Below the pieces are notes generated by a model. That model was given only the letters and a program-made list of their open reading frames with translations. It did not search any database and had not been told where the DNA came from. A stretch of 9,910 nucleotides of DNA from a virus. Lineage: Duplodnaviria > Heunggongvirae > Uroviricota > Caudoviricetes. The stretch covers positions 1 to 9,910 of the IMG/VR virus record IMGVR_UViG_2529293139_000004, one strand, 5' to 3'. The position numbers and the translations under genes are program-made. Position 1 is the stretch's first letter; every line of letters starts with the position of its first letter. This document shows, one piece after another, positions 125 through 9,657 of the stretch.

Positions 125-302
125 CTCTGCACGTTGTTGAATACTTGTCATTTTCATCCACTTATTTCAGGCTTATGTAATTGGCGGTGATTCTACAGCA
201 ACTTGGATGCTTTAGCAGTTCGGACATTAGGCTACGAATGACCTGCCTAGAGGTTTGTTAAGACGCAAAGTGCTGGTGCTTTATGCCTGTGAAGTTTATA
301 GT

Positions 303-327
303 TGTGTACACATAACGAGTACACGAG
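303..327. promoter_or_regulatory. phd-doc promoter operator region (palindromic Phd/Doc binding sites)
   Basis: Perfect 10-bp palindrome TGTGTACACA at 303-312 and a related GAGTACAC half-site at 317-324, immediately upstream of the phd SD. Consistent with known autoregulation of the P1 addiction operon. Exact site boundaries not verified. Confidence 0.5.
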
Positions 328-333
328 GTGTTT

Positions 334-555
334 ATGCAATCCATTAACTTCCGTACCGCGCGCGGCAACCTTTCTGAAGTGCTCAACAATGTTGAGGCCG
401 GGGAAGAGGTTGAAATCACCCGCAGAGGCCGTGAGCCAGCAGTAATTGTCAGCAAGGCTACTTTCGAAGCCTACAAAAAAGCGGCGCTGGATGCTGAATT
501 TGCATCTCTGTTTGACACCCTGGACTCCACCAACAAGGAACTGGTTGACCGATAA
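334..555 (+). CDS. phd: Phd antitoxin (prevent-host-death), 73 aa
   Basis: Translation [44 protein letters not shown]... matches P1 Phd from memory. ATG at 334 is preceded by GAGGTG (325-330); the ORF-track start at 328 is an in-frame GTG just upstream. Stop overlaps the doc start (TAATG). Confidence 0.93.
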
Positions 556-935
556 TGAGGCATATATCACCGGAAGAACTGATAGCGCTTCATGATGCGA
601 ATATAAGCCGCTACGGCGGCCTGCCTGGCATGTCAGATCCGGGCAGGGCAGAGGCCATTATCGGGAGAGTTCAGGCCAGAGTTGCCTACGAAGAGATCAC
701 CGACCTTTTCGAAGTCTCCGCCACCTACCTGGTGGCTACAGCGAGAGGGCATATATTCAATGATGCCAATAAGCGTGCCGCGCTAAACAGTGCGCTGTTA
801 TTTCTACGCCGTAACGGGGTGCAGGTATTTGATTCACCTGAACTGGCAGACCTTACCGTAGGGGCTGCGACCGGAGAGATATCTGTATCTTCTGTCGCCG
901 ACACGTTACGTAGATTGTATGGTTCCGCGGAGTAG
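555..935 (+). CDS. doc: Doc toxin (death on curing), Fic-fold kinase, 126 aa
   Basis: 126-aa product with the Fic-type motif HIFNDANKR; sequence matches P1 Doc from memory. Translationally coupled to phd by a 1-nt overlap. Confidence 0.95.
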
Positions 936-939
936 ATTA

Positions 940-1119
940 ATGGCACGTAAATACAACAAATTGTCCCGTGAAGCGTTAAAGATGCTTCTTGATGGCGTGA
1001 GTCGCCGCGAGGTAAAGCAATACCTGGTTGGTAAGCAAATTGGTGCTAGGACCGCTATTGCTGTGTTATGCCGTCAGGAAATGGTTGTGCTTAAACAGAG
1101 AATGCCGGGCAGCAGATAA
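940..1119 (+). CDS. small hypothetical protein (59 aa from ATG 940), immediately downstream of doc; position corresponds to pdcA of P1
   Basis: ORF-track entry 919..1119; the internal ATG at 940 has GGAG about 12 nt upstream. Basic, possibly helix-rich product. No recognisable domain from sequence alone. Confidence 0.4.
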   Translation: MARKYNKLSREALKMLLDGVSRREVKQYLVGKQIGARTAIAVLCRQEMVVLKQRMPGSR

Positions 1120-1146
1120 AGCCCAATCAGTGATGAAAGGTGTGAT

Positions 1147-2190
1147 GTGAAAGCCGTAATTACTCCCTTTGTACAAAAAGAGCTTGGCGTCGCCACATTC
1201 AAAGTGGATCAGGAAGTCAGAAAGCTGGTGGAGGCTGGCCGTAAATTTATTATGGAGCCGGTGCCGCGTGAGTTAATCGAGCACATGGACGACGGCCTCG
1301 TTGTTTCCGAGCAAACTATGGCAACAAATGAGGCGTTGCAGCCGTTTTTTAACAGCGATGAACTGTTTCGCCGTATTGGTGGAATTGACACGCTGGTGGC
1401 GTGGTTGCGCAGGAAAGAGGGGCAATGCCAGGCCGCAGATCGTAGCTGGTGTGACAACCATATTGTCCACGCAGAACGAGACAATAGCGCGGTGTTGTTG
1501 TGCTGGCATCACGATAACCATTACCGGATGCGTGGTTTTAATGAGCTGAAAGAAACGCTGCATAATAATCGCGTTAACTGGATACTGGATGTCGCCCGTC
1601 AGGAAATGGGGCTTTCAGATGGCCATGATCTAAGTATTCAGGAACTGTGCTGGTGGGCTTTCATGCGCAACATGATGCACCGAATGCCGGAAGAAGTTTG
1701 CCGTATATCAATAAATAAGATGAAAGCCGCAACGCAGGATAGCGGACCTCTGAAAGAGGCGGATATTCGCCCGTATAACGATCGCGCTACAGCATATGTT
1801 CAGATGATGGAAGAACGCGCCGCGCCGATGCGTGCAAAAGTATGCCCTGTGGATGTTGACTCCGACCCTGGCATGGCGCATTTCAAAATACCAAAACTGC
1901 AATCGCTAAAATTACCTGAGTACATGGACTTTGTTGCTTCCCGTCCATGCTGTGGGTGTGGAGCGGCGGGAGCTGGCGCTCACATTACGCCTTATATCGT
2001 TCGTCATAGTCGATTATGCGCGCATGACATTTACGCAATTCCTCTGTGCCAGTCATGCCTGCGTGATATTGAGCGTGACCGCGATAATTGGGAGAAGACG
2101 CACGGTAGGCTGGCGATGCATCAACGATTGTTCTTTGATTACGCGCTTGGAGTCGGCGCTATCACAAGTTACTCGTCGAGCGTTATATAA
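1147..2190 (+). CDS. 347-aa Cys/His-rich protein with HNH-like zinc-binding motifs (position and size suggest the P1 pdcB / DUF968-type protein)
   Basis: GTG start at 1147 preceded by AAAGGTG. Long ORF with motifs CWHHDNH and PCCGCG...H...C...PLCQSC typical of HNH/zinc-hook-like nucleases. Assignment to the pdcB/DUF968 family is from memory and not verified. Confidence 0.7.
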
Positions 2191-4247: not shown

Positions 4248-4264
4248 AATTTATTAGAGCAATT
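4248..4264 (-). promoter_or_regulatory. C1 operator (Op99-type), minus orientation
   Basis: Reverse complement AATTGCTCTAATAAATT is a near-perfect match to consensus ATTGCTCTAATAAATTT. Upstream of coi-c1. Confidence 0.65.
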
Positions 4265-4329
4265 GCCAGACAACTATGAAAAACAATCCAGTTTTTAGCT
4301 GGTGGAGTGGGATTTTTCTCTCAAAATTT

Positions 4330-4346
4330 ATTGCTCTAATAATTCT
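4330..4346 (+). promoter_or_regulatory. C1 operator, plus orientation
   Basis: ATTGCTCTAATAATTCT between coi and loxP. Confidence 0.65.
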
Positions 4347-4389
4347 TGATTTTTGTGCATGGCTGGACGTAAACTCCTCTTCGGACCTG

Positions 4390-4423
4390 ATAACTTCGTA
4401 TAGCATACATTATACGAAGTTAT
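4390..4423. other. loxP site-specific recombination site (34 bp)
   Basis: Exact ATAACTTCGTATA-GCATACAT-TATACGAAGTTAT, i.e. canonical loxP written in reverse-complement orientation of the spacer. Confidence 0.97.
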
Positions 4424-4494
4424 CTTAAGGGTTATTGAACATGATCAATTTACCTGTAAATCCATACAGTTCAATACCTTATCAGGTCAAATAG

Positions 4495-4516
4495 TGATCA
4501 CTTGATCATTTGATCA
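4495..4516. promoter_or_regulatory. cluster of three TGATCA (Dam GATC) hexamers at 8-bp spacing in the cre upstream region; likely methylation-sensitive promoter element
   Basis: TGATCA at 4495-4500, 4503-4508 and 4511-4516; a further GATC at 4443. P1 cre promoters are reported to be Dam-regulated (established knowledge, recalled). Confidence 0.5.
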
Positions 4517-4612
4517 AGGTTGCGCTACGTAAAATCTGCGAAATGTTGGCGGTGTTAGTCCTACAGATTTCGCGTAGCGCACTTAGCACCACCAATCAAT
4601 CAGAGGTGAAAA

Positions 4613-4834
4613 ATGGGATATTCAGCTGCTAAAGTGTCCACTCATCTTGAGCTTGAGAAAAACCGTGGTTACTGGCGGGCAAAAGGGTTTGAGCGTGATA
4701 GTTACCAACTGTCATTATCTCGCGGTGAAGAGAAAATAGAACGCACGCGCGGTCGCTGGCGTTTCTATGACGAGAACCATAAACAGGTAAAGGCAGAGCC
4801 GATCCTGTACACTTTACTTAAAACCATTATCTGA
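4613..4834 (+). CDS. hypothetical 73-aa protein encoded between loxP and cre
   Basis: ATG 4613 preceded by strong SD GAGGTG with 4-nt spacer. Charged, protein-like product. Stop at 4832-4834 lies 7 nt before the cre ATG, suggesting translational coupling. Not a gene I know to be annotated in P1. Confidence 0.4.
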   Translation: MGYSAAKVSTHLELEKNRGYWRAKGFERDSYQLSLSRGEEKIERTRGRWRFYDENHKQVKAEPILYTLLKTII

Positions 4835-4841
4835 GTGTTAA

Positions 4842-5873
4842 ATGTCCAATTTACTGACCGTACACCAAAATTTGCCTGCATTACCGGTCGATGCAACGAG
4901 TGATGAGGTTCGCAAGAACCTGATGGACATGTTCAGGGATCGCCAGGCGTTTTCTGAGCATACATGGAAAATGCTTCTGTCCGTTTGCCGGTCGTGGGCG
5001 GCGTGGTGCAAGTTGAATAACCGGAAGTGGTTTCCCGCAGAACCTGAAGATGTTCGCGATTATCTTCTATATCTTCAGGCGCGCGGTCTGGCAGTGAAAA
5101 CTATCCAGCAACATTTGGGCCAGCTAAATATGCTTCATCGTCGGTCCGGCCTGCCACGTCCAAGTGACAGCAATGCTGTTTCACTGGTCATGCGACGGAT
5201 CCGAAAAGAAAACGTTGATGCCGGTGAGCGTGCAAAACAGGCGCTGGCGTTCGAACGCACTGATTTCGACCAGGTTCGTTCACTCATGGAAAATAGCGAT
5301 CGCTGCCAGGATATACGTAATCTGGCATTTCTGGGGATTGCTTATAACACCCTGTTACGTATAGCCGAAATTTCCAGGATCAGGGTTAAAGATATCTCAC
5401 GTACTGACGGTGGGAGAATGTTAATCCATATTGGCAGAACGAAAACGCTGGTTAGCACCGCTGGTGTAGAGAAGGCACTTAGCCTGGGGGTAACTAAACT
5501 GGTTGAGCGATGGATTTCTGTCTCTGGTGTAGCTGATGATCCGAATAACTACCTGTTTTGCCGCGTCAGAAAAAATGGTGTTGCCGCGCCAACATCCACC
5601 AGCCAGCTATCAACTCGCGCCCTGGAAGGGATTTTTGAAGCAACTCACCGATTGATTTACGGGGCAAAAGATGACTCTGGTCAGCGATACCTGGCCTGGT
5701 CTGGACATAGTGCCCGTGTCGGTGCCGCGCGAGATATGGCCCGCGCCGGAGTTTCAATACCGGAGATCATGCAAGCTGGTGGCTGGACCAACGTAAATAT
5801 TGTCATGAACTACATTCGTAACCTGGATAGTGAAACGGGGGCTATGGTGCGCCTGCTGGAAGATGGCAATTAG
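4842..5873 (+). CDS. cre: Cre tyrosine recombinase, 343 aa
   Basis: Translation MSNLLTVHQNLPALPVDATSDEVRKNLMDMFRDRQAFSEHTWKMLLSVCRSWAAWCKLNNRKWFPAEPEDVRDYLLYLQARGLAVKTIQQHLGQLNMLHRRSGLPRPSDSNAVSLVMRRIRKENVDAGERAKQALAFERTDFDQVRSLMENSDRCQDIRNLAFLGIAYNTLLRIAEISRIRVKDISRTDGGRMLIHIGRTKTLVSTAGVEKALSLGVTKLVERWISVSGVADDPNNYLFCRVRKNGVAAPTSTSQLSTRALEGIFEATHRLIYGAKDDSGQRYLAWSGHSARVGAARDMARAGVSIPEIMQAGGWTNVNIVMNYIRNLDSETGAMVRLLEDGN is near-identical to canonical P1 Cre. Confidence 0.97.
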   Translation: MSNLLTVHQNLPALPVDATSDEVRKNLMDMFRDRQAFSEHTWKMLLSVCRSWAAWCKLNNRKWFPAEPEDVRDYLLYLQARGLAVKTIQQHLGQLNMLHRRSGLPRPSDSNAVSLVMRRIRKENVDAGERAKQALAFERTDFDQVRSLMENSDRCQDIRNLAFLGIAYNTLLRIAEISRIRVKDISRTDGGRMLIHIGRTKTLVSTAGVEKALSLGVTKLVERWISVSGVADDPNNYLFCRVRKNGVAAPTSTSQLSTRALEGIFEATHRLIYGAKDDSGQRYLAWSGHSARVGAARDMARAGVSIPEIMQAGGWTNVNIVMNYIRNLDSETGAMVRLLEDGN

Positions 5874-7108: not shown

Positions 7109-7876
7109 ATGGAGCATAAGCCAAATATGACAACGCACAAAATCCCAAAAAAATTTTGGGACAAAAAGATGGTTGAATGGCCATGTCCTAATTGCGGGCA
7201 AAAAACCCTGAGAATTTTAGACGAATCTTTCATCTGTAAGGACACTGCTGAAACTATCAAAATGCAGGCTGAGGAATGGTTTGACTTAGAGTATACAAGC
7301 TCGGTATTCAGTTGCATGTCACAGTGCGTAAGACCTCAATGTAAGGAGGTAGTGGCATGCACAGGCAGAAGTGGTCTAGAAGAAGATTGGGCCGAGCATA
7401 CAGGACTTTATTACTATCGCTGGTATGAACCATTAAGTTTTACTCCTGGGTTAAAGCTCTTTCTTATCCCGAACATGTGCCCTGAAGACATAGCCTTGCC
7501 TATAAACACCTCGTTTGCACTAAGCACAATCCATCCAGGTGCCGCTGCAAATCTAATAAGAACATCTGTAGAACGATTACTTACAGCTATCGGGGTAACG
7601 GAAACAAACGAAAAAGGGAATAGAATTAACCTCCATAATAGGATTGAGATGATCCCTAGTGAACATTCTGGCTTTAAAAGCCTGTTATTTGCGATTAAGT
7701 TTCTTGGAAATGCGGGTAGCCACCGCTATGAAAACGTTACCGCTGATGACTTGGATAACTCATACGAGATCATGAATTTTATTCTAAGAGATTTATATTC
7801 GGATAATCGCAAAAAGGTTAGTGAGTTAGCTAATAATCTAGACAAAAAATTTAATCCTCAAAAACAAAAAGGTTGA
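7109..7876 (+). CDS. 255-aa protein: N-terminal Cys-rich zinc-ribbon-like region plus C-terminal DUF4145-like helical domain; candidate accessory/defense gene
   Basis: CPNCGQ...C...CMSQCVRPQCKEVVAC in the N-terminal half. C-terminal AAANLIRTSVERLL...FAIKFLGNAGSH...YEIMNFILRDLY fits the DUF4145 pattern as I recall it. Gene is visibly AT-rich compared with flanking P1 core genes. Confidence 0.75.
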   Translation: MEHKPNMTTHKIPKKFWDKKMVEWPCPNCGQKTLRILDESFICKDTAETIKMQAEEWFDLEYTSSVFSCMSQCVRPQCKEVVACTGRSGLEEDWAEHTGLYYYRWYEPLSFTPGLKLFLIPNMCPEDIALPINTSFALSTIHPGAAANLIRTSVERLLTAIGVTETNEKGNRINLHNRIEMIPSEHSGFKSLLFAIKFLGNAGSHRYENVTADDLDNSYEIMNFILRDLYSDNRKKVSELANNLDKKFNPQKQKG

Positions 7877-8031: not shown

Positions 8032-8673
8032 ATGGATAAGAAAATATGCGTTGTTTCAATGAGCGTCGGCAAACCGGCGTCAATGACTGCTGCATGGATC
8101 AATAATGAGCTGATAATGGCTGAGCGGACCAGCTACCCTGAACGCCGCCGCGATATGGAACTCCAGCTGCTGCGCGAATTGCGAGAAAAAGAGGAAAAGA
8201 GTTTTATCGTGCTGGTGGAAGAGGAAAACAGCTTTATTACGGGTCGAGTTGGCCAGCGTGTAAGGTTGCGCGATCCCTTCATGAACGGCAGGCCGGTACT
8301 AATTGAAGCAATGCAGATTTACAAGGAGCTGGAACGCCAGAAAGCAATCAAGTTACCGCGCAAGGAATCCGGCAAATACATCCTCCACCAAAGCATCTTC
8401 GATTCCGAACACGATAAAAAAGGCGATGAATTTTTCAACATCAACTGGAGCGAAATAACGACAGAGCATGTTCTGACGTTACTATGTTGCTTTGTGACGG
8501 AATACAACAACGTTGCCAGCGCCGACTACATCAGGGCAATGGCTGGAGAAGTTGAGGCCCGCCAAGAACCATCGTTACTAAGTCCACTGATTAACATAAT
8601 TCTGGGCACCCAGATACTGGAACAAAAAAAAGTGCCGAAAGGGGTATTAACAGGCAAGCATAATTATTTTTAA
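8032..8673 (+). CDS. hypothetical 213-aa protein with no domain I can recognise
   Basis: ATG 8032 preceded by AGGGG. Long ORF with GC content typical of the P1 backbone, flanked by AT-rich genes. May be a core phage gene (mat-like position) or a partner of neighbouring genes. Confidence 0.7.
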   Translation: MDKKICVVSMSVGKPASMTAAWINNELIMAERTSYPERRRDMELQLLRELREKEEKSFIVLVEEENSFITGRVGQRVRLRDPFMNGRPVLIEAMQIYKELERQKAIKLPRKESGKYILHQSIFDSEHDKKGDEFFNINWSEITTEHVLTLLCCFVTEYNNVASADYIRAMAGEVEARQEPSLLSPLINIILGTQILEQKKVPKGVLTGKHNYF

Positions 8674-8766: not shown

Positions 8767-9657
8767 ATGAAAGCAATGGGGAATGAAGTTTATCAAAGTC
8801 AAAAATGCAAGTTGAAATATTCAAAATCTCAAATTGATAGGGCTGCTCAATTGATAAGGCACGGGTGTAGTGACGAAGAAAGGCAGCAATCTATTGAAAT
8901 GATACAAAATTTCCGTGAGCTGCATCTTTATCCATTAATGCTCATGAAAAATCATTTAGCAAGAGCAGCTGCTAAGGTTGACAAAGACAAAAAGATTCTC
9001 GTTGCAAGAAGACTTAAGCGACTTTCTACCATAATAGATAAACTAGAGCGTCCTAGTCTTGATGGAGGCAGAACTAGCAATGCAATTAAATTAACACGGA
9101 TGCAGGACGTTGGCGGATGTAGGGCCATTGTCAGAAACTTAGACCAGTTGATACAGCTAAAGGAACGTCTTTTAAAAAGCAAATCTGTTCATAGGATTGT
9201 TAAAGAGTATGATTATCTTACTCCCAAAGACAGCGGCTATAGTGGAATCCACCTTGCATACAGTTGCTTCGATCAGAAAGAGGATCAATATCCGTGGCGA
9301 AAAACAAAGATTGAGATACAGTTAAGAACTCAATTGCAGCATGCTTGGGCTACTAGCCTTGAAATAATTGATACCCTTGAAGGTATCAAGCTGAAAACTT
9401 CAAGTGAAGGGCATCCAGAATGGAGACGATTTTTCTATCTAGCCGGATGTCTTGTAGCGCACGACGAAAAAGCCTGCACTCTTGATGAGCTAGTTGTATC
9501 TCAGTATGAAGGCGAGCTTAAAGAGCTGGAACGGACTTTATCTGTACGGAGGAAACTAAGCACATACACCATCGCCGGTAGTGACTCCAACTTACTGATA
9601 GTGTTTTATGTTCAGATAATGCCCGATGACCTTGTCATGCAGCTCCACCGATTTTGA
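8767..9657 (+). CDS. RelA/SpoT-family nucleotidyltransferase (toxSAS/CapRel-like), 3' end interrupted by IS1: native codons 1-270 (8767-9576), then 26 IS1-derived codons
   Basis: Synthetase-domain motifs [33 protein letters not shown] and [13 protein letters not shown]. The IS1 IRR begins at 9577 inside the reading frame, so the last 26 aa and the stop are IS1 sequence. Confidence 0.8.

Follow-up and report, generated by a model that had tools for sequence, protein, structure and literature searches.

The reading frame between loxP and cre in a P1-like element is cra, an annotated small protein gene under purifying selection with a conserved cre junction

The 73-codon open reading frame that separates loxP from cre in the window (the whole stretch of 9,910 nucleotides analysed here) is cra ("cre-associated"), a long-annotated gene of phage P1 and not a new element. 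Codon-level comparison across lineages establishes that it is a real protein gene under purifying selection, and the distribution of its homologues shows that it predates its association with cre. Taken as a whole, the locus is probably best explained as a real, previously annotated small protein gene belonging to P1-type phage-plasmids, together with a proposed coupling of cre to its translation.

The sequence-only reading had regarded this frame as unannotated, which proved wrong. In the P1 reference (AF234172 / NC_005856) it is the CDS at 207..428, gene cra, product Cra, described as "putative cre associated function", with cre following at 436..1467; the 1986 cre sequence (X03453) already listed it, at 256..477, as "pot. 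ORF1 (aa 1-73)" and assigned it a putative ribosome-binding site, and the P7 record names its counterpart upf0.2. A map of the loxP region also names cra between loxP and cre (PMC2409434), and a genome-wide CRISPRi study of P1, in which the gene is P1_gp002, found it non-essential for plaques (EOP 0.66), plaque formation being unaffected by cra knock-down (PMC10695390). When positions 4380-4900 were compared with phage records by megablast, matches of 97-98% identity were obtained to P1, P7, SJ46, RCS47 and others, and most of the matched records name the feature there.

The window is itself an E. coli P1-like plasmid sequence, 99.7% identical to pEC974-2, rather than P1. Its Cra is 95.9% identical to that of P1 (AAQ13977) over 73/73 residues and differs at three positions, with A5, E27 and Y31 where P1 has T, D and C; the length of 73 aa, the Shine–Dalgarno (SD) sequence, the 7-nt gap to cre and the placement 206 nt past the lox centre are the same. 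The CDS is labelled "hypothetical protein" in pEC974-2, and a number of NCBI and nr records call Cra homologues "creatininase" (P0002, P0007, P0008 and P0021-P0024; plasmids H64, H65 and H76). The latter label is almost certainly an annotation error that spread from the gene symbol cra; Cra cannot be a creatininase, because it has 73 aa and lacks a Pfam domain. The cre name in phage records H1, H3, H5-H7, H10 and H12 was seemingly copied from an engineered construct.

Table 1 Features of the cra locus in the window and arrangements of cra and cre in related elements.
Feature	Position in window	Strand	Description
loxP	4390..4423	.	13-bp inverted repeats and 8-bp spacer, read directly; arm, spacer, arm: ATAACTTCGTATA GCATACAT TATACGAAGTTAT
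P3cre (pR1)	4510..4535	+	-35 TTGATC at 4510-4515, -10 TAAAAT at 4530-4535; upstream of cra
cra Shine–Dalgarno	4603..4608	+	GAGGTG, 4 nt before ATG
cra CDS	4613..4834	+	ATG start, 73 aa and TGA stop; translation MGYSAAKVSTHLELEKNRGYWRAKGFERDSYQLSLSRGEEKIERTRGRWRFYDENHKQVKAEPILYTLLKTII
P2cre (pR2)	4689..4718	+	Inside cra; -35 TTGAGC, 18-nt spacer, -10 CATTAT
P1cre (pR3)	4806..4830	+	Within last cra codons; -35 TGTACA, -10 ATTAT
cra-cre spacer	4835..4841	+	GTGTTAA, 7 nt
cre	4842..5873	+	343-aa tyrosine recombinase; ATG at 4842
Divergent P1-type (Klebsiella, Salmonella, Cronobacter, others)			c1 <- coi <- ... 356-aa ORF -> ATGA overlap -> cra -> 7 nt -> cre
Metagenomic contig L242			Cra homologue of 79 aa with an 8-nt gap to cre; Cre 64% identical
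L013, L078, L087 (P1-type)			131-aa ORF (phrog_20152) between cra and cre, with its own SD

The loxP site of the window corresponds to the lox annotation of AF234172 at an offset of 4406, and the order loxP, cra, cre, with cra on the cre strand, is the layout of that record. What the sequence-only reading had described here was accurate: a 73-aa ATG frame lies between loxP and cre at exactly 4613-4834, and its TGA (4832-4834) is separated from the cre ATG by the 7 nt GTGTTAA. It had also called the SD of cra strong and that of cre weak. We scored SD strength as the predicted duplex with the 3' end of 16S rRNA, using random 20-mers of the window as background (mean -2.46 kcal/mol; 4% reach -7.0), and obtained -7.1 kcal/mol for cra and -2.5 kcal/mol for cre, the latter being about the random mean. 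Two observations away from this locus may be recorded. A perfect 34-nt loxP match is found at 17548-17581 of Lactococcus phage Q33 (JX564242.1 / NC_049809.1), inside an annotated portal gene, and could reflect an engineered phage or an artefact. Downstream of ref, the window encodes a DUF4145 protein, a hypothetical protein and a RelA/SpoT-domain protein (7109-7876, 8032-8673 and 8767-9657); this region, in which P1 has its mat and res/mod genes, could be a variable defence-type island.

A frame of this size is not in itself compelling. When the 419-nt interval between loxP and cre was dinucleotide-shuffled, an ATG ORF of 73 codons or more arose on the + strand in 3.3% of cases, so the length is only mildly unusual and the decisive evidence against chance is comparative. 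We therefore turn to loci gathered from IMG/VR (about 90 contigs) and from several assemblies of NCBI, Logan and JGI, among which there are 50 distinct nucleotide alleles of cra, all of those recovered by protein similarity being intact. Between lineages, Nei–Gojobori dN/dS in the cra frame was 0.03-0.31 where dS could be estimated (it was often saturated), against about 0.9 or more when these alignments were shifted to the +1 and +2 frames. Among the 39 P1-type alleles, 34 variants are synonymous (on 48 synonymous sites) and 24 are non-synonymous (on 171 non-synonymous sites), which gives a pN/pS of ~0.2; third codon positions hold 34 of these 58 variants. For cre, dN/dS was 0.03-0.11; dN of Cra is about twice that of Cre, yet Cra too is under purifying selection. 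A separate sample was picked by a 26-nt DNA pattern, a selection independent of the intactness of the ORF, and in this sample cra was intact in 76 of the 78 assessable copies (97%). The sequence-only reading had named frame disruptions, and substitutions without a bias towards synonymous positions, as what would speak against a gene; the data instead show a strong synonymous bias that is confined to the cra frame and disrupted alleles that exist but are rare (2/78), and hence neither speaks against cra. A chance, untranslated ORF lying across the cre regulatory region would be compatible with the shuffling result and with the overlap between cra and annotated promoters, but it is contradicted by the frame-specific bias and the proportion of intact copies, as well as by the conserved SD, the membership in a PHROG family and the existence of remote homologues, and we consider it extremely improbable.

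The encoded protein belongs to a narrow family. Cra matches phrog_804 (E=4.4e-34, profile positions 1-72/72), whereas searches of Pfam, NCBIfam and PADLOC gave zero matches, as did a PDB profile search; there was no fold match, and no Xis or HTH-type DNA-binding fold or domain was recognisable. When 1.84 billion representative proteins were searched with a profile, only 16 Cra clusters were returned, which leaves no deeper family to draw on, and a genome scan with one genome per species found only 3 cra loci. The searchable literature yielded nothing on Cra function, nor a P1 transcriptome that mentions cra. Judged from its sequence, Cra is small and basic, with a net charge of about +5, and contains two short repeats, RGYWR and RGRWR; a low-confidence model places short beta-hairpins around this pair of RG-x-W-R repeats and, after them, a helix at the C terminus. 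The family core can be written as E-x-[EDQ]-K-x-x-G-[YF]-W-R-A-K-G-F ... R-x-D/E-x-x-I ... W ... L-x-x-L-L-K-x-I, of which GYWRAKG, W49 and LLK are kept in homologues down to 33-40% identity.

The genomic context of these homologues indicates that Cra is not always encoded with a recombinase. Phage-plasmids of the SSU5 type (SSU5_068, and CYRAN_62 of Cyrano) encode a homologue that is about 40% identical and has 70 aa rather than 73; it retains GYWRAKGF, W49, Y52 and LLK and a strong SD, and it is the last gene of a small-gene operon that faces repA, with no adjacent tyrosine recombinase. Homologues of this type occur in many Klebsiella, Yersinia and Escherichia plasmids, including the 96-101 kb plasmids of Yersinia pestis. 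Four remoter members (L241, L244, L246 and L247) are likewise situated among small phage genes, without an adjacent recombinase. On this comparative evidence, the association with cre characterises the P1-type lineage, and Cra is not defined by cre. The recombinase-free homologues also argue that the peptide has a role of its own and is not just a leader for cre. The strong SD and the tight spacing to a cre with a weak SD would suit a leader ORF in which the act of translation matters and the peptide is irrelevant; such an ORF is, however, contradicted by dN/dS far below 1, by motifs that stay invariant among homologues of 33-40% identity, and by the homologues that occur away from any cre, making this a very unlikely account.

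One may postulate instead that Cra serves Cre as an accessory or regulatory partner and modulates lox recombination or cre expression. The database label "Cre-associated regulatory protein" suggests such a role, the adjacency of cra and cre is kept down to 64% Cre identity, and a small, basic protein would fit. We nevertheless regard this as unlikely: no experimental source for "regulatory" in the database names was found in the searchable literature, no DNA-binding or Xis-like domain was found in Cra, and homologues of the SSU5 type and on other phage contigs have no recombinase beside them. Moreover, purified Cre alone is well known to recombine loxP, both in vitro and in eukaryotic cells.

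Within P1-type elements, the junction between cra and cre is conserved in its geometry. The SD of cra is strong in every lineage examined (-6.4 to -12.1 kcal/mol), whereas that of cre ranges from +1.5 to -2.5 kcal/mol across lineages, the metagenomic contig L242 being the exception at -5.9 kcal/mol. The gap is 7 nt in the P1-type, Klebsiella, Salmonella and Cronobacter lineages and 8 nt in L242; among the unique junctions in which cra adjoins cre, the length of the spacer is constant and its sequence varies (GTATTAA, GTGTCAA, GTGTTAG, GCAGACA, CTAACTT). A gap of 7-8 nt, combined with an SD that is strong for cra and weak or absent for cre, recurs where Cre is only 64-80% identical. In the divergent P1-type elements, Cra has 71 aa and is 57-68% identical, and Cre is 78-82% identical. 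Between lox and cra, these elements carry a conserved ORF of 356 aa (phrog_7674; 1934-3004 in L232-L237 and 2937-4007 in L004), which shares an ATGA overlap with the start of cra and is absent from both P1 proper and the window. In the three P1-type loci with an insertion between cra and cre, the inserted 131-aa ORF (2742-3137 in L013) overlaps the cre start by ATGA, and the last cra codons beside it still encode TLLKTII, through six changes in the last nine codons of L013 that are all synonymous. Both neighbouring ORFs match only PHROGs of unknown function.

This arrangement resembles that of translationally coupled gene pairs in bacteria and phages, in which reinitiation follows termination over a short gap or an ATGA overlap. 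The distance from stop to start is 7-8 nt, the upstream SD is strong and the downstream start lacks one; the geometry of the cra-cre pair is conserved, and the inserted 131-aa ORF restores it as an ATGA overlap. It differs from such pairs in having promoters annotated inside the upstream gene. The predicted RNA fold of 4770-4900 has a minimum free energy of -20.9 kcal/mol, compared with a mean of -20.4 for shuffled sequences (z=-0.17), and thus no stable structure that would mask the cre start was found at the junction. Coupling, if present, would consequently be of the termination-reinitiation kind and not an unmasking of a structured start. From the arrangement of the junction, coupling of cre to cra translation on the pR1 transcript is plausible, with the balance roughly even or tipping slightly in its favour.

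The promoters are central to this question. Their positions in the window were transferred from the GenBank feature tables of AF234172 and X03453 at the offset given above. Of the annotated promoters, P3cre alone would yield a transcript that spans both cra and cre. Its sequence is identical to the annotated one, and there are Dam sites (GATC) at 4504-4507 and, within its -35, at 4512-4515. P2cre and P1cre lie inside cra, so that some cre mRNA would lack the cra start, and the P1cre transcript would, by inference, begin about 5 nt before the cre ATG. A simple sigma-70 consensus scan called no promoter in 4250-5000, P3cre included, which points to P3cre being weak or non-canonical and means that the consensus alone is insufficient to confirm the cre promoters of the annotation. 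No terminator-like site was found between cra and cre. At position 4693, in cra codon 27, the window has G and P1 has T, such that the -35 of P2cre is TTGAGC in the window and TTGATC in P1; the E27 codon of the window thereby abolishes a GATC Dam site within this element.

Natural variants of cra bear on the same point. A recurrent frameshift, caused by a 1-nt deletion (C4694), cuts Cra to 41 aa and leaves cre intact; the allele occurs in 138 blocks of the collection in the protein index and in 1 of about 92 IMG/VR copies, and is represented among our loci by L238-L240 and L248. The same deletion alters the annotated P2cre -35 from TTGAGC to TTGAGG and shortens its spacer from 18 to 17 nt; as a matter of speculation, it might strengthen a cre promoter that is independent of cra. 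In-frame deletion alleles were found as well, and one natural allele of 45 aa looks like the product of a deletion between the RGYWR and RGRWR repeats. Separately, a 399-nt contig assigned to Acinetobacter idrijaensis (L008, JQCU01000025.1) encodes the first 45 Cra residues with 93% identity to Cra of the window, and looks like contamination of that assembly.

Obligatory coupling is opposed by the two annotated intragenic promoters, from which cre would be expressible without cra translation, and by the frameshift allele, which keeps cre. A more far-reaching alternative is that there is no functional coupling at all: cre would be translated alone, from the P2cre transcript or the nearly leaderless P1cre transcript, and the short gap would reflect compact packing. 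Beyond the promoters inside cra and the wide occurrence of the frameshift allele with an intact cre, this alternative is favoured by the lack of inhibitory RNA structure at the junction and by the fact that heterologous systems routinely express Cre without cra. It fits less well with several features of the comparison, however. The -10 of P2cre is not conserved in the divergent lineages, outside P1 proper; those lineages place cra in a longer operon behind the overlapping 356-aa ORF; cre is without an SD in all lineages but one; the spacer keeps its length despite its varying sequence; and the inserted 131-aa ORF re-creates a stop/start overlap with cre. We regard the absence of coupling as a real possibility, though one that falls short of even.

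The 3' end of cra shows an additional pattern at the nucleotide level. Synonymous sites of codons 59, 65-67 and 70 (GTA, CTG TAC ACT, AAA) are invariant across six lineages. When the comparison was restricted to codons with an invariant amino acid, the mean pairwise codon difference was 0.28 in the last 15 codons (4787-4831) and 0.53 in codons up to 40; a Mann–Whitney test of the last 15 codons against codons up to 52 gave p=0.007, a value to be read as exploratory given the small sample. This suggests a second, nucleotide-level constraint on this part of the gene, arising from cre initiation signals or from pR3.

If coupling holds, cra would be, in P1-type elements, the cistron directly before cre on the P3cre/pR1 transcript, and ribosomes that terminate at the cra stop would re-initiate 7 nt further on, at a cre ATG without a usable SD. 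The dose of Cre from the pR1 transcript would then follow cra translation, with transcripts from P2cre and P1cre supplying a low level of Cre that is independent of cra. A broader reading joins these elements with a function for the protein: Cra would be specific to phage-plasmids (of the P1 type, the SSU5 type and their relatives), a burst of Cre would be tied to cra translation from pR1 in the period directly following infection or replication, during which GATC sites lack methylation or are hemimethylated, and Cra would act alongside in the same process, whether this is cyclisation of the genome or the resolution of dimers and establishment of the plasmid. In this full form we consider the scenario quite unlikely.

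Cre/loxP is among the most widely used of genetic tools, and nothing in these results has a consequence for how Cre is used. The small gene that directly precedes cre in its native setting is nevertheless real and under selection, and the geometry of its junction with cre is conserved. Because the gene is real, is older than its link to cre and retains this geometry, an experiment on the coupling of cre to cra translation would be worthwhile.
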